Below are positions 3,002-32,000 of a stretch of 32,000 nucleotides of DNA, in pieces. A model generated the notes under the pieces. The model saw nothing but the letters and a program-made list of their open reading frames with translations, did no database searches and had not been told where the DNA came from. A program made the position numbers and the translations under genes. The DNA is taken from contig NZ_CVPE01000006.1 of NCBI RefSeq assembly GCF_001049895.1, positions 1,154,836 through 1,186,835 on the forward strand. Reading direction: 5' to 3'. How positions within the stretch are numbered: the stretch's first letter is position 1; each line of letters begins with the position of its first letter. This DNA comes from Rubeoparvulum massiliense. GTDB taxonomy: Bacteria > Bacillota > Bacilli > Rubeoparvulales > Rubeoparvulaceae.

Positions 3002-3850
3002 TTATTTCTCGAATGTTTTTCGCTCTCTAGCCAATGCTTGAATCTGCTCTACAACCGTCTCATCGATCTTCTTGCTTCCAATGTCCCCATGGAAGACTTC
3101 CCCATGACGTTCACCATGAAAATCAGAGCCTGCTGTCGTCAACAATCCATACTCTTCGGCTAGCTGTAGGTACTCTGTTTCGGTGCTTCGATTATGATCA
3201 CTATGCCAGATCTCAATGCCATCGAGACCTGCTTCCACCAAGCGTGGGATTAGCTCAGGCTTACCGTAGAGTCCCGGATGAGCAAGCACTGCTACACCAC
3301 CAGCAGCATGGATCATCTGAATTGCTTCCTCAGGTCGAATTCTTGGCGGAGTTACATAAGCCTTTCCACCCACTCCTAGATACTCTTTAAAAGCCTGGGG
3401 CATGGATGAAACAATCCCTTTCTCAATTAAGAGCTGAGCCATATGAGGCCTGCCAATATTGGAACTAGATCCCTTCTGTGCCACAACCTCTTCCAGGGTG
3501 ATGGATATTCCTAATTCCTGCAATCTTGCAATCATCATTTCGTTTCGGCGATCCCGGACATGTTGCAGTTCCTCACATTTCTTTAAGAAATCCTGGTTAT
3601 GAATATCCATCTCATAACCAAGAACATGAATGTCCTTTCCATCATCTAGGGTGGAGATCTCAATGCCCTTCACTACTTCCACACCAATTTCTATGCCAGT
3701 CTGTTCTGCTTCAGATAATCCTGCTACTGTATCATGATCAGTTAAGGCAATGCCACTCAGTCCATTGGCTCCTGCTCGTTTAACAACCTCACTAGGGGAG
3801 AGAACACCATCGGAAGCGGTGGAATGTGTGTGAAGATCATAATGCTTCAT
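3002..3850 (-). CDS. PHP domain phosphoesterase (YciV/TrpH-like)
   Basis: MKHYDLHTHSTASDG, ALTDHDT, GIEIST, VLAHPGLYG and GSDFHG motifs. The start was moved from the ORF-track value of 3856 to the ATG that follows AAGGAGG. Confidence 0.92.
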   Translation of the reverse strand: MKHYDLHTHSTASDGVLSPSEVVKRAGANGLSGIALTDHDTVAGLSEAEQTGIEIGVEVVKGIEISTLDDGKDIHVLGYEMDIHNQDFLKKCEELQHVRDRRNEMMIARLQELGISITLEEVVAQKGSSSNIGRPHMAQLLIEKGIVSSMPQAFKEYLGVGGKAYVTPPRIRPEEAIQMIHAAGGVAVLAHPGLYGKPELIPRLVEAGLDGIEIWHSDHNRSTETEYLQLAEEYGLLTTAGSDFHGERHGEVFHGDIGSKKIDETVVEQIQALARERKTFEK

Positions 3851-3952
3851 AGGCAACCTCCTTATTAATTTTAAAGGTGAGACGTCATCTGCTCAATCAA
3901 GCATGATTTGTCTCACCTTTAGTATAGCGTATGATTTAGGTCATATTAAAGT

Positions 3953-4729
3953 TTAATATGCAACGATGTGAAAACCGCCATCCACGTGGAGAACTTCTCC
4001 AGTAATTCCTCGTGCCCAATCACTGAGTAAGAAAAGTGCAGAATCTCCTACTTCCTCTTGTGTAACAGAACGACGAAGTGGCGCCTTCTCTTCCATCACA
4101 TGTAGAATCGAATTGAAATCGCCTACCCCTTTCGCAGCTAGCGTGCGAATTGGACCTGCAGAGATGGCGTTAACACGGATACCTTCTTTACCTAGATCAT
4201 TCGCTAGATATCGTACCGTCTGATCTAGGGCTGCCTTAGCAACTCCCATCATATTGTAATTCTGAACAACACGCTCACCGCCGAGATAAGTCATGGTAAG
4301 AATGCTGCCACCTTCTGTCATGAGAGGGCGTGCTGCACGAGTAACCGCGATTAATGAGTAGGTACTAATATCTTGGGCTAAAGCAAAACCATCTCTGGAT
4401 GTATTCACAAACTCTCCTTTTAGATCCTCCTGCTTTGCAAATGCGATACAGTGTACCACGCCATGTAGAACACCCACTTCTGCTTGCAAGGTATTAAATA
4501 AGGCTTGGATATCTTCATCATTGGTTACATCGCATGGGAGTACGAGAGGTTGTTTCTCTTGTTGAAGTGTAGTTGCTAGCTCTTCTACCCGCGGCTTCGT
4601 CTTCTCACCTTGAAAGGTAAAATGTAGTTCAGCTCCTTCTCTTGCTAATGATTGGGCAATCCCCCATGCAATACTTCGATGATTAGCTACACCCATGACT
4701 AAGATTTTTTTCCCAGATAGCAATGACAT
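3953..4729 (-). CDS. fabI: Enoyl-[acyl-carrier-protein] reductase (NADH)
   Basis: MGVANHRSIAWGIAQSLA, the catalytic-site region MTYLGGERVVQNYNMMGVAKAAL, and GPIRTLAAKGVGDF. Confidence 0.97.
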   Translation of the reverse strand: MSLLSGKKILVMGVANHRSIAWGIAQSLAREGAELHFTFQGEKTKPRVEELATTLQQEKQPLVLPCDVTNDEDIQALFNTLQAEVGVLHGVVHCIAFAKQEDLKGEFVNTSRDGFALAQDISTYSLIAVTRAARPLMTEGGSILTMTYLGGERVVQNYNMMGVAKAALDQTVRYLANDLGKEGIRVNAISAGPIRTLAAKGVGDFNSILHVMEEKAPLRRSVTQEEVGDSALFLLSDWARGITGEVLHVDGGFHIVAY

Positions 4730-23797: not shown

Positions 23798-24430
23798 GTG
23801 GTAACCCGTACAAATCCACTTAAAAGGACACACATGGACAAGATTACACAAAAAAATCATTTGGGCAATGCTTTTCACCAAGAAATCGAAAGTCTGCCTG
23901 CACTGGACGATTGTCTTTTTAATGAGCATCTTCAAAAAGGCATCGATCTTTATTCTATAAGTGTTTCTCAGCTGTCAATACGATTAAATGGCATGAATCT
24001 AGATATATTTCAAAGGCTATTCCTTGATTTAGTTTTACAAAAAATACCGCAAAACAAAGGTGGGTGTAAAGTTGCACCTACGTCTAGTGTTTATGGAGAA
24101 AGGGAATCTTATCCTGAAAAAACCGTGCTAACAACCACGAAAGAACGTGACCGTGGCTACTTGGATTACAAGCGTTTATGACCGTATGACAGATGATGGT
24201 TACTTATTCCTTTCTAGGCTACGAAAAAAAGCTGCCATCAGGAAGTTTATGACTTTAAACTCCCAGAAGATACAGCAGTTATATCGGATCGAATGGTGTT
24301 GATTGGAATAAGTCAAACACGTGCTGAAAATTATTTTCGCTTACTAAAAAGCCAAGGATACAAAAGTGAATTAATTCCATCCAATTACTAATCGTTTTGA
24401 TTTGAGTGCCAAAGAAATTCCAGAGTCGTT
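23798..24430 (+). pseudogene. Decayed IS4-family transposase
   Basis: ISVSQLSIRLNGMNLDIFQRLFLDLV, then ESYPEKTVLTTTKERDRGYLDYKR | frameshift | RMTDDGYLFLSRLRKKAAI, VLIGISQTRAENYFRLLK, and an ITNRFDLSAKEIPE remnant. Several frame breaks and missing segments. The 3' boundary is unclear. Confidence 0.75.
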
Positions 24431-24663
24431 GTCACACAGGTCTAATTGTAAATAAAGGCCAAATTGATGGAACTACCTTTAATTGGGTATTTACTTCTTT
24501 GGCTCTATACGAGAAAAATATTGAAATTGAAATTTCAAATATTATTTATGCAACACTAGTGATAAAAATTAGTGCCTTGATGAAGGGATCCACCTTAGAA
24601 TGTTTCCAAGAAAGAAACATTCCTATTAAAGGAAAAATTTTAGACTGTAAGTAGAATATTTTT

Positions 24664-25659
24664 TTACACGTAATAAATTATATTAGGGCTACTTGTACTT
24701 TTATGTGGTCCTAAACATAATTCATACTGATATCCATTGCGAATTTTAATTGTCGACTTTACTGCTATTGTACAAGTTTTATTCAATGGAATCCTTTTAA
24801 GATTGAAATTTCCAATCCTTATTCCAGTTATGTAACAATAACCACTATTTTTTGCGTTTTTTATCACTAGTTGTTTTGTAGTTGGATCGATTGTCTGGTC
24901 AATGACATTAATCACAATTATTGCCTCTTGATTCTTAGAAGCATTACAAGATCTCAAAACGTCTGTAACAGTGATGACAGAGCTTGGGTTAGTGTCCTCA
25001 ATGTACTTTCTGAAAATCTCGGTCTCAATATATTTTTCAATTAAGTTAATCATACATTTAAACAAATGAATTAGTAGTGTCATCTGTTTTGAATTTAACT
25101 GTTCACCTATTTCCATTTTATACGTATGCGAAATCGTATTTCTTAAATCCACAACAAGTTGTAAGTAACCAATTGCTGATTCTGATAGTTTGGTTGAGAT
25201 ATTTGTATGAACTGGAATGAGACCAGAACTTTTCAATAAGTTAATTATATTCTTAATATCTACTGATTTATCTATCAATGAAGTGAGAGTGTTAATATCG
25301 AGTCCTATAATTTTGATTAATTCTGCAAACTCATTCCAATTAAGATTATTCGACTGACATAAAATTTCTTTTTTTACTTTAGTATCTTTAATATCTTTCA
25401 TAAACTCCCTGGATAGGTAAGATTTACCAAAACTTTTCTTTAAGTATCTTTTTATAAATTCCTCTGTATGCAAAATATACTCGTAGTCAAAGTATGTATC
25501 ATAAATCTCATCCTTGGCATACGTTTCCCAAATAGTATAAAGTGATAAAATGAAATTTCTAGTTACTATTTTTTCTAATCTTTTTGATGGGTACTTTTTC
25601 TTAAGTTCTATTGTTCTTAATAATTCATCCAATGTCTCAAAAGCTACATTCTTGCTCAT
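24664..25659 (-). CDS. HEPN-like protein (MAE_28990/MAE_18760-like) with beta-rich C-terminal region
   Basis: Mostly helical N-terminal ~230 aa with LRNTISHTY (RNxxxH motif), then a predicted beta-rich region. Start overlaps the DUF262 gene stop (ATGA). Confidence 0.75.
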   Translation of the reverse strand: MSKNVAFETLDELLRTIELKKKYPSKRLEKIVTRNFILSLYTIWETYAKDEIYDTYFDYEYILHTEEFIKRYLKKSFGKSYLSREFMKDIKDTKVKKEILCQSNNLNWNEFAELIKIIGLDINTLTSLIDKSVDIKNIINLLKSSGLIPVHTNISTKLSESAIGYLQLVVDLRNTISHTYKMEIGEQLNSKQMTLLIHLFKCMINLIEKYIETEIFRKYIEDTNPSSVITVTDVLRSCNASKNQEAIIVINVIDQTIDPTTKQLVIKNAKNSGYCYITGIRIGNFNLKRIPLNKTCTIAVKSTIKIRNGYQYELCLGPHKSTSSPNIIYYV

Positions 25660-26774
25660 TTAGATAATTCCTCAGATAGAAAGTTATAGAAAATGTCTAT
25701 CCTAGCTTTTACATTAACCAAAGCTGTATATTTTCCATTAAATTGGTCCTTGTTTTTTTTAATTAGACTATTTTTATTTGTTTGATTTACAGTACCCCTT
25801 CGACGAAGCACCTCTAAATCATAACCTTCATCTAATAATTTCGACACTGAAAGCATTACAGTGTCATATATCATTTTTTCAAACTTACCTTTATTACTCT
25901 TCATGAATGCTTTGTCTCCATAAATAGAATGTACATTTTCAATAACATTCATAAAATATTTTTTTGCATCTTCAACTTGTTCTTCATTAAATTTTTGTGC
26001 AGCAATTTGATAGTTGTCGAGTGTTACTTTAATTCCTCTTTTGTAATCACATTTTATGGCAGATTTAAACGCAAAAAACCTAAGTATCATTTCTCTATCT
26101 TCCATGCGGATGAGTTCATCATCAGTATTTTTAATCATCAATTTAAATATCTTATTATCCGCTAATTCATTTACCATATTATTGAAATTAGAGGGGTGTA
26201 ATGCGTTTCTAATTTCATGTGGAGATAGTTCCATTCCCCCGGTATTTAGCCTTTCAAACACAAATTGTTTTAATTCTAACTCTCTTTCCTTACCCTTGCT
26301 CGATTCTTTCAAAATTATAATTGCAGACAAATAGCGTCTGTGGATTAGATTTCTTAACTCCTCAGGTAGGTCACTAAATTTACAACCATTTATTTCACTC
26401 CACAGTTCCAATCCCTCTAGCTTAAATTCATTCTTAAAAAAACTGATTATGGTTGAGATTCTTTGTAAACCATCCATTACTTCATATTTATTATAATCTG
26501 TCTCATAAAGAAAAACCGGAGGTATGGGAACATTGACCAAGCAACTCTCTATTAATTTTGATTTTCTTTTAATATCCCATACCCTTTTTCTTTGATATTC
26601 TGGATTTAAATTGTAATTAACAAAAATAAGTGGTAAGTTTTCTAAAGGATATCTCGCTTGATCAATAAGAAGGTTATACTCGCCATTCAGTGCTTTATTG
26701 ACTAAATACTCGCGGTTATAAGATGAATTTTTTGCTACTTCTTTTATATTGAAAACATTGAAAATTTTTTCCAA
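25656..26774 (-). CDS. DUF262 (GmrS/ParB-like) domain protein
   Basis: LNPEYQRKRVWDIKRKSKLIESCLVNVPIPPVFLYE...YEVMDGLQRISTIISFF...LKQFVFERLNTGGMELSPHEIRNAL. The ORF track starts at ATG 26792. TTG at 26774 has a well placed SD (AGGTGGAG), so it is the preferred start. Confidence 0.9.
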   Translation of the reverse strand: MEKIFNVFNIKEVAKNSSYNREYLVNKALNGEYNLLIDQARYPLENLPLIFVNYNLNPEYQRKRVWDIKRKSKLIESCLVNVPIPPVFLYETDYNKYEVMDGLQRISTIISFFKNEFKLEGLELWSEINGCKFSDLPEELRNLIHRRYLSAIIILKESSKGKERELELKQFVFERLNTGGMELSPHEIRNALHPSNFNNMVNELADNKIFKLMIKNTDDELIRMEDREMILRFFAFKSAIKCDYKRGIKVTLDNYQIAAQKFNEEQVEDAKKYFMNVIENVHSIYGDKAFMKSNKGKFEKMIYDTVMLSVSKLLDEGYDLEVLRRRGTVNQTNKNSLIKKNKDQFNGKYTALVNVKARIDIFYNFLSEELSK

Positions 26775-27097
26775 TACTACTCCACCTTTCATTAGAACTC
26801 TTTAAATAAAATATAGCATATTATTGTTTTTTTTGTTCCTATTTTGAGAATTCCTTCTTCAACTATTCTGACCCTTTAGTTTAAGTACATTTTTTTACAA
26901 ATCTTCGTTTGTTTTACCGTATAAAAAACAACCCTCTATGAATTTCAAAACTACTAGTAATTATCACCTGTTGATTCCCATGAAAGTTGTCTTTATTTTG
27001 ACGATGAATTCTTTTTCTTTATTAAAGTAAGACGTGTAGTAGTACAAAAATTAGTACAAAACAGTTTTATCCATATTCATTTGTGGTAGTGTCAATA

Positions 27098-28458
27098 AGT
27101 TTGTGTAATTTGTAGGGTACCTATCGCGTTCAATTCTATCTTGATAAATGATTCTATTGGTTCATATTATAAGGATCAATAGAATGCTCAGTTAGCACTT
27201 TTTCGCTATAACGTTGCTTGAACATCTCTTGTAGCTCCGAATAAGCAGCATCAAAACCACGAAGTTTCCTTTCTGACCACCGTTGATTGTAGTCAACAGA
27301 CTCAAGATAGACAATCTTTTCGGCTGCCTTCTCGGTAGGTAGACTGTTCATGGGCTTCGTGCGTTTTTTGATCTCTTTCATGGTACGTTCGATGATATTC
27401 GTGGTATAGATCAAGGGACGTATGGATGCAGGATAATCTAAGAATGTGAGCAACACGGATAAATCTTGTTCCCATGAACGAACAACTTTCGGGTATTTCT
27501 TCTCCCACGCTGCTTTAAACAATGCAAATTGTTCATGAGCTTCTTCCAGACTATGAGCTTGGTAGATGGGCTTTAAATCTTCTGCAACCGAAGGTTGATC
27601 CTTTTTCCGTATAAGGTTTAAGGCATTTCGAACTTTATGAACGACACAGCGTTGAACATCGGCTTGAGGAAAGACTTCTTTCATCGCTTCTTCAAGTCCT
27701 GGAAGTCCATCGAATACCCCCAGTAACACTTCCTGAACACCACGGCTGCAGAGATCCATTAAAATCTCTTTCCATCGTAGCGCACTTTCTTGACCGCCCA
27801 CATCAAACCCGAGTATCTCACGATACCCTTTCTCGGTAACACCAATGACGAGGTAGACCACTTCATTGGCAACATCTTCGCGGCGAAGCTTTAGATAGGT
27901 TCCATCTAAATAGAGAATGGAGTAACGTTGCTTCAAAGGACGCTGAAGCCACATCTCCATATCTTCAACAACCACATCTGTAATGTGACTGATCGTGGTG
28001 GCTGAATAAGATTGTCCTAAGATTCGCTCAATAAAATGACCAATTTCTCGTGTACTCATACCTTTCTGATACATGGTGATGATCGTATCGTTTCTTCGAG
28101 CCATTGTTCACGACGTTGATAGGGACTAAATATCCTGGTCTGAAAGGTGTTGTCGCGGTCACGTGGAACTTGTAAATCTTCGATACGCCCATATTTGGTA
28201 TCCAGTTGGCGTGTATACGAACCATTTTTATAATTCTTAAGTTCAGGATGTTCGTAAGTGAAGAAGCCATTCATTTCTTCCTTCATGATGGTTTCTAGTT
28301 TCTCTTTTACGAAGTTTCGAACCATCATTTCCAATTGCTTTTCAAAGGGGTTTTGCTCTATACTTGTAGACATGGTAGGGTATCTCCTCTTCGTTGATTT
28401 TGCGGTTAACTTGAGGGTACCCTATCTCTTTTTTGCTTTCAAGCACTTTACACAAACT
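27098..28458 (-). mobile_element. IS256-family insertion sequence (disrupted transposase)
   Basis: Transposase ORFs are flanked by AGTTTGTGTAA (27098-27108) and its inverted copy TTACACAAACT (28448-28458), with a further internal TAGGGTACC similarity at both ends. No clear target duplication seen. Confidence 0.75.
27154..28373 (-). pseudogene. IS256-family transposase, split by a frameshift near 28090
   Basis: N-terminal part (28373-28056) FQTRIFSPYQRREQWLEETI continues in another frame (28104-27154) IITMYQKGMSTREIG..., with LYLDGTYLKLRRE, FDGLPGLEEA and TTNIIERTMKEIKKRTKPM. Confidence 0.92.
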
Positions 28459-28858
28459 ATTGTACGTCATCTCATTTGTTTAAAAATGCACTAGCAAGCA
28501 CGCATAGATTTATTAACATAGACAGAAAAGGACATCTTGTCCCCTCCTGAATCACAAAACACTCCTTTTTATGTAAACACCCAATACCTTTGAAGACATT
28601 TTCATTTTAATGGATTGGTATAAATTGGGTAACCTGATTATAGTGGTGAAAAGACAAGAAAAGTAATTCATTATTCGTACTATAATAAAATGGGTAATCG
28701 TATAGAAATATAACATTAGCTTACCTAAGATATATTCGATGATTAAATTGAGATAATTTATGAAGTATAACCCCCTTAGCAAAACATTACACAAAAATAA
28801 TCAAAACTTATTCATTAGTGTTCGTTATGATTGTAAATGAAAGGGAGGTGAAATACCG

Positions 28859-29193: not shown

Positions 29194-29715
29194 TTGATCG
29201 ATATGACAGAAAAAAATGGAGTACGATATTCGCAAGAACAAAAAGAGTCCATTATCAAACGCATGATGCCCCCCAATCATGAATCTGTATCGAAAATTTC
29301 AAAAGAAGAAGGCATCTCAGATGCGACGTTGTACAAGTGGCGCAGAGAAGCTCGCAAGGCTGGTATGGCAACACCTGGTAATGGACAAACAAGCGAGAAA
29401 TGGAGTAGCTAAGATAAGTTTTTAATTGTGATAGAAACCTTCGCGATGAATGAATTGGAGCTTGCCGAGTATTGTCGCAAAAAGGGTCTGTATCGTGAAC
29501 AGATTGAAGCATGGAAAAATGTATGCCTTCAGGCAAATGGCCATGCATTCGATCAAGCGAAGCAGTTGAATGGTGCATTGAAGGAAGAACAGAAGCGTGC
29601 TAAGCAATTAGAAAAAGAGCTACAAAAGAAAGAAAAGGCACTAGCCGAAGCTGCGGCGTTATTACTTTTGCGAAAAAAGGCCCAAGCGATTTGGGGGGGC
29701 GACGAGGAAGAATGA
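29194..29715 (+). pseudogene. IS3-family OrfA interrupted by one in-frame TAA (29410-29412)
   Basis: ISDATLYKWRREARKAG...TSEKWSS* continues in the same frame DKFLIVIETFAMNELELAEYCRKKGLYREQIEAWKNVC... Confidence 0.85.
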
Positions 29716-30770
29716 TTAGCCCGTCAAATTTCGCATTAGCAGTCGAACTTATCCAAGAAGCCCATCAAAATGATGCGCGGCTAGCGAAGGCTTGCGAGGA
29801 ACTTCATATCAGCGTTCGTACCTATGAACGTTGGGTGGCAGAGGGTGGTGTGAAGGTTGATCAGCGCCCTCTTACGAAAAGACCGGTACCGAAGAATAAG
29901 TTGTCTGAGAAAGAAAAAGAAGAAATATTAATGGTTGTCAAACAGGAAGAATACGCCGATTTACTACCGACACAGATCGTACCAAGGCTTGCGGATAAAG
30001 GAACTTATATTGCGTCAGAATCCACCTTTTATCGTGTGTTACGTGAAGAAAAAATGCAACACCATCGTGGTCGTAGTCAAAAGCCTGAGAGAAGAATCCC
30101 TGAGAGTCATCTAGCAACGTCGCCAAACCAAGTGTGGACATGGGATATTACGTGGCTTGGTGGGCCTGTAAAAGGTTTGTATTATCGCCTCTATTTAATT
30201 CTCGATTTATTTAGTAGAAAAGCAGTGGGTTGGGAAGTTTGGGAAACAGAAGAGGCAAAACACGCCGAAACGCTCGTGAAAAAAGCAGTCATCCGTGAAA
30301 AAATCCAAGGGGCACCTCTCGTGTTGCATTCAGATAATGGCAGCCCGATGAAAGCCGAGACATTCTTAAGTTTACTAGAGAAATTGGGCATTCAAAGTTC
30401 CTTTTCAAGACCGCGTGTGAGTAACGATAATCCTTATTCAGAAGCGATGTTTCGAACACTTAAATATCGACCTGATTTCCCACACAAAGGTTTTGCGTCA
30501 CTCGAAGAAGCAAGGAAATGGGCACAGCAATTCGTCCATTGGTACAACGAAATTCACCTGCATCGTGGGCTAAATTTTGTGACGCCTGTGCAGTGTCATA
30601 TTGGAGAACATGTAGCCCTATTGGAAAAGCGAAAAAACGTATATGAAGCAGCGAAGGCAAAGCATCCAGAGCGTTGGGCTCGGAGCACAAGAAATTGGAC
30701 ACCTCATGAACGAGTAGCACTTAATCCCATGCGAGATGAAGAGCAAACCAAAGCACTGAGGAAATCATAA
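29712..30770 (+). CDS. IS3-family OrfB transposase (DDE integrase core)
   Basis: NQVWTWDITWLGG...LILDLFSRKAVGWEV, LHSDNGSPMKAETF, and NDNPYSEAMFRTLKYRPDFP (D, D, E present). ATG 29712 overlaps the orfA stop (ATGA). Confidence 0.93.
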   Translation: MISPSNFALAVELIQEAHQNDARLAKACEELHISVRTYERWVAEGGVKVDQRPLTKRPVPKNKLSEKEKEEILMVVKQEEYADLLPTQIVPRLADKGTYIASESTFYRVLREEKMQHHRGRSQKPERRIPESHLATSPNQVWTWDITWLGGPVKGLYYRLYLILDLFSRKAVGWEVWETEEAKHAETLVKKAVIREKIQGAPLVLHSDNGSPMKAETFLSLLEKLGIQSSFSRPRVSNDNPYSEAMFRTLKYRPDFPHKGFASLEEARKWAQQFVHWYNEIHLHRGLNFVTPVQCHIGEHVALLEKRKNVYEAAKAKHPERWARSTRNWTPHERVALNPMRDEEQTKALRKS

Positions 30771-30786
30771 TATTCCCCATTCTCCT

Positions 30787-30832
30787 GGTGATTTGAATCG
30801 AAAACCCGTTCTTCCTTTCGATTCAAATCACC
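30787..30832 (+). repeat. Perfect 17-bp inverted repeat, 12-nt spacer
   Basis: GGTGATTTGAATCGAAA (30787-30803) / TTTCGATTCAAATCACC (30816-30832). Two further pairs (CC/GG) follow outside one mismatch. Confidence 0.95.
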
Positions 30833-30953
30833 CGGTCAGCAAGCGTAGCGCGGTAGCCTTGACTGAATTTGGGATTTGATGACGATCTATTAAAATACTA
30901 AACTAGCTAAATGCGACAACTATATTGACAAACACTGCTTGGGGGGATGAGTA

Positions 30954-32000
30954 ATGGCAGATTTTATATTAGAAGAACAAATAGAAAATGTAATAAATAA
31001 AACAACAAAAGAATATTTAAAGGAAGTTCTTTCAAGCTATTACAATGGAAATTATAGAGCAGTAGTTGTGGTACTTTATACTATTGTTATTTATGATTTA
31101 TTAAAAAAAATTGTTATTCTAAAAGAAATATATAATGACAAAGGTGCTGAGAAAATAATTGGAGAAATTAAGAAACAACAAAGCAATAATCCAAAAAGTC
31201 CAGAATGGGAAGGCAGTTTGATTGAAGATGTGTACAAAGAAACGAAATTAATATCGGCTGTTGAAAAAGATGAGCTTCTACACCTCAAAAATGAAAGAAA
31301 CTATGCAGCACATCCAATAATAAACATAGATGATGAGAATGAAAAATTAGTACTAAAACAGATTACAAAAGAGACCGCCAGTGATCTAATAAGAAAGGCG
31401 TTTGAAATTGTATTTCTGCGTGATGCAATTCTAGCTAAAAACATTGTTAATGATATTATTTCTGATTTAAATCTATATTATGAAAGAGTAAAGACAGAAG
31501 GATTAGAAAATTATTTAAATACAAAATATTTCCGAAGAATGATTCAAGAGAGAAAAGATAGTTTATTTAAATCGTTGTGGAAATTTGTTTTCATTCTTAG
31601 CGATGATGAATGCAATAAAAATAGAGAATCAAATTACTGGGGACTAGTATTTTTATATAATGAAAATAAAAACCATTACCAGAATTTAATCAAAAAAGAT
31701 AAGGATTACTATTTCAATAAATTGCAATTAGAAACTATAAAAAGCTGGTGTGGGAGCGGAGGAATTGACGTAAACTACGATACTATTATTATGTTTAAAA
31801 GCATAAGTCGAATTACTAATTTAATCAAATTCTTAGAATCTGCTCCAGAAATATATGCGGTACTAAATGACTATGCGAAAAATATATTAAAGCAATCAAT
31901 TAATCATATGTACATCGAAGATGATGTAGTTGAAAAGTCTTTGTATCAGGTCAACAACCAAAATAGCGATTTATTTAAAGAACAGGTAAAATTGAAATCT
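30954..32000 (+). CDS. HEPN-like domain protein, incomplete at the window end (not in ORF track)
   Basis: Manual translation gives 349 open codons to the window edge: MADFILEEQIENVINKTTKEYLKEVLSSYYNGNYRAVVVVLYTIVIYDLLKK...KDELLHLKNERNYAAHPIINIDDENEKLVLKQ... RNYAAH fits the HEPN RNxxxH motif. Confidence 0.8.
   Translation, partial: MADFILEEQIENVINKTTKEYLKEVLSSYYNGNYRAVVVVLYTIVIYDLLKKIVILKEIYNDKGAEKIIGEIKKQQSNNPKSPEWEGSLIEDVYKETKLISAVEKDELLHLKNERNYAAHPIINIDDENEKLVLKQITKETASDLIRKAFEIVFLRDAILAKNIVNDIISDLNLYYERVKTEGLENYLNTKYFRRMIQERKDSLFKSLWKFVFILSDDECNKNRESNYWGLVFLYNENKNHYQNLIKKDKDYYFNKLQLETIKSWCGSGGIDVNYDTIIMFKSISRITNLIKFLESAPEIYAVLNDYAKNILKQSINHMYIEDDVVEKSLYQVNNQNSDLFKEQVKLKS

Follow-up and report, generated by a model that had tools for sequence, protein, structure and literature searches.

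The window analysed here, a 32,000-nucleotide stretch of the Rubeoparvulum massiliense genome (contig NZ_CVPE01000006.1, positions 1,154,836 to 1,186,835), contains two co-directional genes on the minus strand, in the following termed A and B, which occupy positions 25656-26792 (378 aa) and 24664-25659 (331 aa). A preliminary description had read them as a DUF262 protein and a HEPN-like protein, and the peptides quoted in it (YQRKRVWD, DGLQR, FERLNTG, LRNTISH and INVIDQTIDPTTKQLVIK) were all found in the translations of A and B. The features of the locus are:

24638..26814, minus strand: horizontally shared cassette (blastn, GC profile)
25656..26792, minus strand: gene A, DUF262/ParB-like, longest ORF of 378 aa (ORF list, Pfam, PADLOC)
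26780..26789, minus strand: Shine-Dalgarno sequence AAAGGTGGAG for a TTG start at 26774 (sequence)
26196..26609, minus strand: ParB-DUF262 domain of A, aa 62-199 (Pfam domain span)
within 26196..26609, minus strand: motif I of A, QRxxxW, with Q67, R68 and W72 (alignment)
26460-26474, minus strand: motif II of A, DGxQR, D107-R111 (alignment)
within 26196..26609, minus strand: motif III of A, FxxxN, F179...N183 (alignment)
25671..26195, minus strand: C-terminal helical region of A, aa 200-374, without nuclease domain (NsnA profile coverage, Pfam)
25656..25659, minus strand: ATGA junction, TGA stop of A overlapping ATG start of B (sequence)
24664..25659, minus strand: gene B, 331 aa, HEPN (RiboL-PSP/MAE_28990 family) and C-terminal beta-barrel (ORF list, Pfam)
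25024..25608, minus strand: HEPN domain of B, aa 18-212 (PF18735 alignment, profile 16-190 of 191)
25126..25143, minus strand: putative catalytic motif of B, R173-N174-T-I-S-H178, Rx4H (alignments)
24700..24984, minus strand: C-terminal beta-barrel of B, about aa 226-320, predicted to be EF-Tu domain-2-like (AF2, Foldseek)
27094..28463, minus strand: flanking IS256-like element, transposase in two ORFs (ORF list, repeats I15 and I21)

The span of 24664-26792 initially given for the pair does hold both ORFs; its upper end, however, probably lies outside gene A, as the true start of A is most likely the TTG at 26774 (372 aa) and not the ATG at 26792. This is concluded from the Shine-Dalgarno sequence at 26780-26789 and from the fit to the 372-aa NCBI protein P0020, a DUF262 protein of R. 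massiliense to which protein A is 100% identical; protein B is 100% identical to R. massiliense P0001. The 4-nt ATGA overlap already described is visible in tctaaATGAgcaag and constitutes translational coupling of A and B; a GAGGA Shine-Dalgarno sequence lies 9 nt 5' of the overlap.

The GC content of the cassette is 28% (stretch, 27-30%) versus about 43% for the R. massiliense genome background. At the DNA level the cassette is 85% identical to a locus of Mesobacillus selenatarsenatis (L008), and the homology ends about 25 nt past each gene end, the shared unit being a minimal two-gene cassette of 2.2 kb (blastn). The IS256-like element, whose terminal repeats contain TTACACAAAC, lies about 300 bp upstream of gene A. 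Mobility of the cassette is concluded from the minimal shared unit, the low GC content and the IS elements alongside, and the two genes together form an intact cassette that was acquired horizontally. Neither a tRNA nor an Rfam family is associated with it, and it has no convincing terminator or promoter. A search for direct and inverted repeats around it revealed no clear att sites or target-site duplications, and no further minus-strand genes lie between gene B and rpsD.

Protein A matches Pfam GmrSD_N/DUF262 at 1.5e-27, in line with its first classification, and no match to DUF1524 or any further Pfam domain was obtained for it. The residues of motifs I-III, as defined for ParB-DUF262 proteins together with the ParBDB domain (PMC12065111), are invariant in 20 homologues with 44-87% identity. 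Among the PADLOC profiles the best match is NsnA (7.6e-69; aa 60-374, profile 65-381 of 385); PD-T4-2_A matches at 1.4e-39 (aa 61-366). Judged by sequence, the C-terminal region of A is the putative equivalent of the ParBDB DNA-binding domain of NsnA.

Protein B alone matches PF18735 (HEPN_RiboL-PSP) with E 4e-5 and 24.0 bits, which is below the Pfam gathering score of 28.4, at full-length coverage of the domain. The family as a whole gave clearer matches, as the same model was hit by 53 of 58 diverse members at E<=0.001 (best 7.4e-28) and by 109 of 113 representatives at E<=1, these representatives having been obtained by clustering at 50% and sharing a mean identity of 18%. HEPN membership is thus supported for the family at the level of sequence profiles. 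The peptide LRNTISH had been taken for the RNxxxH motif of HEPN ribonucleases, and this motif is indeed invariant in 19 close homologues, in the 58 diverse partners and in the 113 representatives; a count of the RN...H motif gave 146 of 148 representatives, and one RHxxxH variant was noted (locus L053). Across the 113 representatives Y41, N105, R173, N174 and H178 are invariant and E45 nearly so. The strict invariance of RNxxxH argues for a catalytic HEPN domain rather than a scaffold.

In the AF2 model of B aa 3-221 are all-helical with pLDDT 30-60, and because of this low confidence no structural HEPN match was obtained with Foldseek. A further homologue search with a profile of 58 sequences, limited to 8,000 word-sharing candidates, contributed three more proteins, so that the alignment of the HEPN half gained no depth and its model stayed at low confidence. 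No relative of B with a solved structure came up when PDB sequences were searched with a profile, and no NCBIfam model matches B or its relatives, one of which is named 'MAE_28990/MAE_18760 family HEPN-like nuclease' by NCBI.

The C-terminal region of about 100 aa, previously described as beta-rich, is all-beta in a domain-only AF2 model (pLDDT 82.7, pTM 0.74). The top 50 PDB hits of this model in Foldseek were all translational GTPases (EF-Tu, IF2, eIF5B, aIF2gamma and eEF1A) with TM 0.43-0.59 (0.50-0.59 for EF-Tu), 90-117 aligned columns and rmsd 3.6-6.8 A at weak E-values of about 1e-2, and two further searches showed the same trend; the barrel is therefore predicted to resemble domain II of EF-Tu/IF2 in its fold. 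Sequence-level tests of homology to EF-Tu domain 2 were negative: Pfam GTP_EFTU_D2 matched 1 of 113 members of the B family (E=0.019), and hhalign against E. coli EF-Tu domain 2, for which an approximate sequence was used, gave E=0.81. The barrel is the fastest-evolving part of B. Co-evolution is seen between protein A and the HEPN half of B, which are correlated with a Spearman coefficient of 0.77, B evolving faster than A. Shuffling of barrels between lineages was ruled out as the main pattern, as no pairs combine a distant A with a similar barrel, and the only clear barrel replacement was found in locus L045. Such an additional C-terminal barrel on a HEPN RNase is apparently undescribed.

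A search of 185,579 species genomes yielded 399 DUF262 relatives. The long-form family comprises 308 clusters at 50% identity with a median length of 352 aa, and is found in Firmicutes, Cyanobacteria, Bacteroidota, Proteobacteria and Actinobacteria. For 87 related loci from five phyla the neighbourhood was compared, and next after the DUF262 gene comes a homologue or remnant of B in every case where there is sequence. The two genes occur together in essentially every related locus. In detail, 80 of the 87 loci have an ORF downstream of the DUF262 gene that starts at -35 to +114 nt (mostly -35 to +20 nt), all of them recovered by profile search; the other seven lie at contig ends, had a start missed in gene calling or are decayed remnants, with homology to B in all that have sequence there. 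The order with the DUF262 gene first is kept in each of the 80 loci for which a partner was called, none of these partners (0/80) containing a Walker A motif. The pairing of A and B is very strongly conserved and obligate.

Copies of the pair occur on plasmids and in phages, one of them on an E. coli plasmid of 3.9 kb that carries little else. A long form adjoins the cI repressor in a temperate phage of Vibrio, and a short form in a P2-like phage adjoins a replication gene and also a cytosine methylase. The closest relative adjoins a CBASS SAVED-endonuclease effector, and another locus (L004) an SRA-HNH gene and an SLFN-like helicase. In six related loci a co-oriented C5 cytosine methyltransferase abuts the pair in a layout like that of restriction-modification systems, suggesting that at least some members read the methylation state of DNA; an adjacent methylase is absent from the R. 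massiliense locus and from most relatives.

Pairings of HEPN and DUF262 proteins had been said to be noted computationally, and rows of a survey do list the Ribo L-PSP-HEPN and MAE_28990 HEPN families as 'in operon with ParB' (Anantharaman 2013, PMC3710099). The Pfam families in these rows are those matched by the B family; the rows give the operon association and mention no beta-barrel at the C-terminus of the members linked to ParB. The architecture of DUF262 plus HEPN is already known and thus less novel than first assumed, since a DUF262 and HEPN_RiboL-PSP pair has been validated in a shorter form as the anti-phage system PD-T4-2 (PMC9519451; PMC10952713). This system from E. coli ECOR65 blocks T4 both natively and when transferred (Vassallo 2022, PMC9519451). 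It resembles the R. massiliense locus in its gene order, with both genes side by side and carried by mobile elements, in its DUF262 protein, which has about 350-370 aa and lacks DUF1524, and in its HEPN protein, which falls into the RiboL-PSP/MAE_28990 Pfam families (PF18735/PF18737), PD-T4-2B and protein B sharing PF18735, PF18737 and Swt1 as top HHpred matches. However, the whole system measures 1,540 bp and PD-T4-2B is a HEPN-only protein of about 168 aa (168 positions in the PADLOC profile), whereas B has 331 aa with a larger HEPN region and the barrel of about 100 aa. The PADLOC PD-T4-2_B profile did not match B or four other long-form partners tested at E<=1. The locus belongs to a long-form family distinct from the short PD-T4-2.

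Two other system types share parts of this architecture. NsnA of Menshen has the ParB-DUF262 motifs I-III and a ParBDB-like C-terminal domain and is matched by A over its full profile (PMC12065111), and the effector subunit of Menshen is polymorphic as at loci of the R. massiliense type (Millman 2022; Li 2025, PMC12065111). In Menshen, however, an NsnB ATPase and an NsnC inPIN-nuclease follow, where R. massiliense has a single HEPN protein in place of both; a Menshen assignment was rejected because no NsnB or NsnC exists anywhere in the family, though NsnA is the best PADLOC match. The type IV restriction enzymes GmrSD, BrxU and SspE have, like A, the DGxQR motif in a DUF262 sensor domain of the NTPase type. 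The GmrSD type differs in its DUF1524 His-Me nuclease; the preliminary description had seen no DUF1524/HNH-like region in A, no match to DUF1524 or HNH, nor to any other DNase domain, was found in A or B, and a GmrSD assignment was rejected. As the effector here would be a separate HEPN protein, RNA and not DNA is the predicted target.

We consider it probable that the R. massiliense locus, intact in both genes, serves as an anti-phage cassette of the DUF262 plus HEPN_RiboL-PSP class, in its long form, with A as sensor or switch and B as RNase effector, an assignment of roles drawn by analogy. Protein A, a ParB/DUF262 NTPase with a ParBDB-type DNA-binding domain, would bind DNA carrying a foreign feature, for example a modification state or a replication intermediate in analogy to GmrSD, BrxU and SspE, and would change its state through NTP binding or hydrolysis. 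It would then activate B, a HEPN RNase with an invariant RNxxxH site. HEPN RNases dimerise and thereby form a composite active site, and B would be expected to do the same. Activated B would cleave RNA, and the resulting growth arrest or abortive infection would put an end to phage production. The analysis shows the identities of the domains, the invariance of the motifs, the obligate pairing, the coupling of translation, the mobility of the cassette and, as a prediction, the fold of the barrel; we infer which subunit senses, what triggers it, which RNA is cut and how the response ends. Given the faster evolution of B, it could equally be B rather than A that contacts the phage trigger.

The barrel of B most likely serves in substrate or ligand recognition or in contact between A and B. 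A useful analogy for the extra domain is DARNA/PD-T7-3, a HEPN RNase in which a non-catalytic C-terminal domain binds a nucleic-acid activator and gates tRNA cleavage, although DARNA is a single-gene dodecamer with an alpha-helical C-terminal domain and has neither a DUF262 partner nor a beta-barrel (bioRxiv 10.64898/2026.02.22.705581). A more speculative idea, to which we give little weight, is that the barrel grips the acceptor (aminoacyl-CCA) end of tRNA like translational GTPases do, or acts as a mimic of EF-Tu for a partner from the phage or the ribosome. The cassette would in that case couple a ParB-type NTPase switch that senses DNA to an RNase directed at tRNA, with the choice of tRNAs or phage decoys determined by the hypervariable barrel.

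The overlapping genes with their tight translational coupling, and the spread of the pair in minimal form by plasmids and phages, down to the 3.9-kb E. coli plasmid, could also point to a toxin-antitoxin or addiction module. B would then be a constitutively toxic HEPN RNase neutralised by A, the pair would mainly stabilise mobile DNA, and any anti-phage effect would be secondary, arising when A is lost or titrated on infection; HEPN toxins are well known in such pairs from review text. We regard this as unlikely, because A is an enzyme-like protein of 370 aa with invariant NTPase motifs, unlike typical antitoxins, because an MNT or small antitoxin is absent even though the regulatory gene precedes the toxin, and because PD-T4-2 was isolated as a defence system that is active in its native host.

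That GmrSD, BrxU and SspE act on modified DNA, and that cytosine methylases adjoin six related loci and the P2-like phage copy, would fit a restriction-like system in which DNA is attacked by A, or by A and B in complex, depending on how the DNA is modified, and in which B has a structural or nucleic-acid-binding role instead of being an RNase. The absence of a DNase domain from both proteins, the invariant RNxxxH of B, which points to a catalytic HEPN domain, and the lack of an adjacent methylase here and in most relatives make this likewise unlikely. Finally, A might be the NsnA of a broken Menshen system that has lost NsnB and NsnC, for example through the adjacent IS elements, with B as unrelated cargo. 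The score of A against NsnA and the IS256-like element upstream would agree with this, but the DUF262 protein of the PD-T4-2 type from E. coli also gives a better score with NsnA than with PD-T4-2_A, and this ranking is thus not diagnostic. As, moreover, an ATPase or NsnC-like gene is absent, no partner has a Walker A motif, and A and B are kept as a unit in all related loci and move as an exact two-gene cassette, we find such an origin extremely improbable.

E. coli PD-T4-2 is the short version of a class with a much larger long-form family. Censuses of defence systems probably under-count this class, as the PADLOC PD-T4-2_B profile misses all long forms tested. Residues for mutation are now at hand in A (D107/R111) and in B (Y41/E45/N105/R173/H178), and the barrel offers a testable handle on the recognition by the RNase. 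If the barrel did grip tRNA, this would be a new link of foreign-DNA sensing to the shut-off of translation and would provide a mechanism for the PD-T4-2 class.

The two-gene operon of a DUF262 protein (A) and a HEPN-like protein (B) proposed in the preliminary description is real, and its open reading frames, which overlap by ATGA as read from the sequence, lie in the window next to two insertion elements:

25656-26792, minus strand: gene A, longest open reading frame, 378 aa
24664-25659, minus strand: gene B, open reading frame, 331 aa
27094-28463, minus strand: IS256-like element, about 300 bp upstream of the cassette
29194-30835: IS3-family element, orfA pieces at 29194-29412 and 29428-29715, orfB at 29691-30770

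Because of a strong AAAGGTGGAG site ahead of it and the fit to the 372-aa NCBI model, the TTG at 26774 is probably the start of A; the start of B is preceded by a GAGGA ribosome-binding site 9 nt upstream. A and B each match a Rubeoparvulum massiliense protein record at 100% identity. The pair is flanked by rpsD and the IS256-like element, with the IS3-family element beyond, and has a GC content of 27–30% versus about 43% for the genome. Its closest relative, in Mesobacillus selenatarsenatis, shows 85% DNA similarity which is confined to 24638-26814, that is both genes plus about 25 nt on either side, and the mobile unit is therefore a minimal cassette of 2.2 kb.

The transposase of the IS256-like element is split into two overlapping open reading frames (28056-28373 and 27154-28104), its terminal repeats have TTACACAAAC in common, and the element could supply or disrupt the promoter of the cassette. 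On the other side of the cassette, a 19-nt stretch at 24054-24072 has 15 of its 19 nt in common with this terminal repeat. It might be a solo IS end that brackets the island, but such matches are common in this AT-rich region. A near-perfect hairpin of 20 nt (30784-30835) comes after the IS3-family element. Beyond the element, at 31000-32000, the GC content drops again to about 28% and open reading frames extend past the window end, which may be a second acquired segment.

Pfam recognises nothing but GmrSD_N/DUF262 in A (1.5e-27, aa 62-199), so that the reported lack of DUF1524 stands, while PADLOC matches NsnA over almost the full length (7.6e-69) as well as PD-T4-2_A (1.4e-39). A carries QRxxxW, DGxQR and FxxxN, the DUF262 motifs of NsnA and GmrSD (PMC12065111), and the motif residues are invariant in 20 homologues with 44–87% identity. 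Its C-terminal half is the counterpart of the NsnA ParBDB DNA-binding domain. With these features and no DUF1524, A is a ParB-type NTPase and DNA-binding protein lacking a nuclease module of its own.

Relatives of A were searched for by a pattern and tblastn scan with one genome per species, which found 399, of which 80 loci were fetched; seven from exact-protein look-ups brought the set to 87 loci. The expected co-occurrence of the two genes was borne out: at 80 of the 87 loci a plus-strand open reading frame, mostly of 315–363 aa, begins -35 to +114 nt from the stop of A. An iterated profile search with the B alignment found all 80 of these partners, 75 of them with an exact RN...H and none with a Walker A motif. 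Among the five others, four are truncated, with frameshift or decay seen in at least L026 and L070, and one (L053) has RHxxxH. Contig ends, start-calling misses or decayed remnants account for the seven loci without a called partner; wherever such a locus has sequence at that place, B homology was found. The two genes thus co-occur in effectively every case over Firmicutes, Cyanobacteria, Bacteroidota, Proteobacteria and Actinobacteria.

In the cyanobacterial loci L024, L026, L052 and L070 the HEPN partner is frameshifted or a remnant next to an intact DUF262 gene, suggesting that the effector is lost recurrently, as expected of a toxic gene.

Taken alone, B matches HEPN_RiboL-PSP (PF18735) over the full domain (aa 18-212) at E 4e-5, with 24.0 bits versus a Pfam threshold of 28.4, the second match being MAE_28990 HEPN (PF18737). 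No structural HEPN match was obtained from the AlphaFold model, in which the helical half reached a pLDDT of only 30–60 from an input of 19 shallow sequences. The family is more informative. RNTISH is unchanged in 19 close homologues; among 58 diverse partners with a mean identity of 26%, only N105, R173, N174 and H178 are invariant, and 53 match PF18735 at E<=0.001 (best 7.4e-28). Across the 113 representatives that an exhaustive HMMER search supplied (mean identity 18%), Y41 joins these four, and at E<=1 PF18735 is found in 109 and PF18737 in 93. Of 148 representatives, 146 contain RN...H; the remaining two are short, at 60 and 200 aa, and are probably fragments. At the level of sequence, this motif invariance together with the PF18735 matches settles B as a HEPN protein of the RiboL-PSP kind, and the earlier reading of RNxxxH as a HEPN motif is upheld.

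The proteins evolve unevenly. A retains 35–50% identity between phyla (E about 1e-75), the HEPN half of B falls under BLASTP detection beyond Firmicutes, and the C-terminal ~100 aa of B are recognisable in the closest subfamily only. This ranking holds without exception over 2,346 locus pairs, and at 40–50% identity of A the B C-terminus shows 21% versus 20.3% for shuffled sequences. Even so, A and B diverge in step (Spearman 0.77), and exchange of the C-terminus among lineages is rare in the locus-pair comparison. Only L045 stands out clearly, with a barrel that was either replaced or diverged very rapidly: it shares 64–70% (A), about 50–54% (HEPN half) and just 25–29% (barrel) identity with six related cyanobacterial loci.

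This C-terminal region had been described as beta-rich; aa 222-331 modelled alone are all-beta (pLDDT 82.7, pTM 0.74), with pLDDT 73–89 in the full-length model. The top 50 Foldseek matches of the barrel in the PDB are translational GTPases alone, i.e. EF-Tu, IF2, eIF5B domains III-IV, aIF2gamma and eEF1A (TM 0.43–0.59, EF-Tu rows 0.50–0.59; 90–117 aligned columns; rmsd 3.6–6.8 A). The full-length model of B gave a similar result in the PDB plus bacterial NADPH-oxidase entries, and the best matches among viral structures lean to giant-virus translation factors. IF2 and eIF5B are not known to contain any barrel other than the domain-II type, which points towards a barrel of the 'translation protein' kind and away from EF-Tu domain 3. 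As the barrel resembles the tRNA-acceptor-binding barrel of translation factors, tRNA would be an attractive, though unproven, target of B. Within the barrel (window 24664-24996), the 19-member subfamily, unlike the wider family, conserves C238, C275, C296 and C315 fully or almost fully, and these cysteines could form a metal site or structural cluster.

The preliminary interpretation was essentially right, except that the architecture belongs to an already known and validated class. PD-T4-2 ('DUF262, HEPN') was isolated from E. coli ECOR65, protects against T4 when cloned and sensitises the native strain when deleted (Vassallo et al. 2022, PMC9519451); residues 7-163 of its B subunit are reported to match PF18735, PF18737 and Swt1 in HHpred. 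Since the entire system measures 1,540 bp (PMC9519451) and the PADLOC PD-T4-2_B profile has 168 positions, validated PD-T4-2 is the short, HEPN-only form, whereas long-form B has an additional barrel. An E. coli plasmid of 3.9 kb carries a short form (373 + 191 aa; PF18735 5e-18, PD-T4-2_B 4.4e-4), a P2-like phage carries another (381 + 239 aa), and a long form adjoins cI in a Vibrio temperate phage (402 + 355 aa). The PD-T4-2_B profile matched no long-form partner tested. The new elements are the long-form family with its extra barrel and its escape from current profiles.

Menshen was considered in view of the NsnA match. Every DUF262 subunit, including that of E. coli, scores higher with NsnA than with PD-T4-2_A, so this ranking is no sign of Menshen, which requires the NsnB ATPase and the NsnC effector; both are absent at the window locus, and Menshen was rejected.

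Neighbours of the pair are heterogeneous, without a constant third gene among the related loci, and defence genes recur among them (as raw counts). In M. selenatarsenatis a CBASS-type SAVED-endonuclease effector (3398-4564 of that locus; PADLOC 8.5e-181) lies directly beside the pair, which places it in a defence island. nSTAND3-type NTPases occur at six loci (raw count), and at one locus the neighbours of the pair include an SRA-HNH gene and a SLFN-like helicase. Six loci (L035, L057, L063, L065, L076, L080; raw count), Bacteroidota, Clostridia and Fusobacteriaceae genomes among them, have a C5 cytosine DNA methyltransferase immediately adjacent to the pair and in the same orientation, an RM-like arrangement of three genes. 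The copy in the P2-like phage also has an adjacent cytosine methylase. On the E. coli plasmid, pLR-27_3 (3,948 bp, non-mobilizable), the short-form pair is accompanied by little more than a replication gene and a gene for a VbhA-family antitoxin, and it appears to be what the plasmid mainly carries.

A, of the NTPase-type DNA-binding kind with intact motifs, is joined by obligate pairing and translational coupling to B, a HEPN protein whose catalytic site does not vary, and the mobile cassette they form is located in defence and prophage hotspots. Our literature search found no mechanistic paper on PD-T4-2. A HEPN tRNase under the control of a C-terminal nucleic-acid-binding domain has a precedent in DARNA (bioRxiv 10.64898/2026.02.22.705581). 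We suggest that A would sense some feature of invading DNA and that its NTP cycle would gate B, which would dimerise and cleave RNA, thereby stopping phage growth. The barrel may recognise the RNA substrate, an activator or a phage protein, and its fast evolution fits an arms-race surface.
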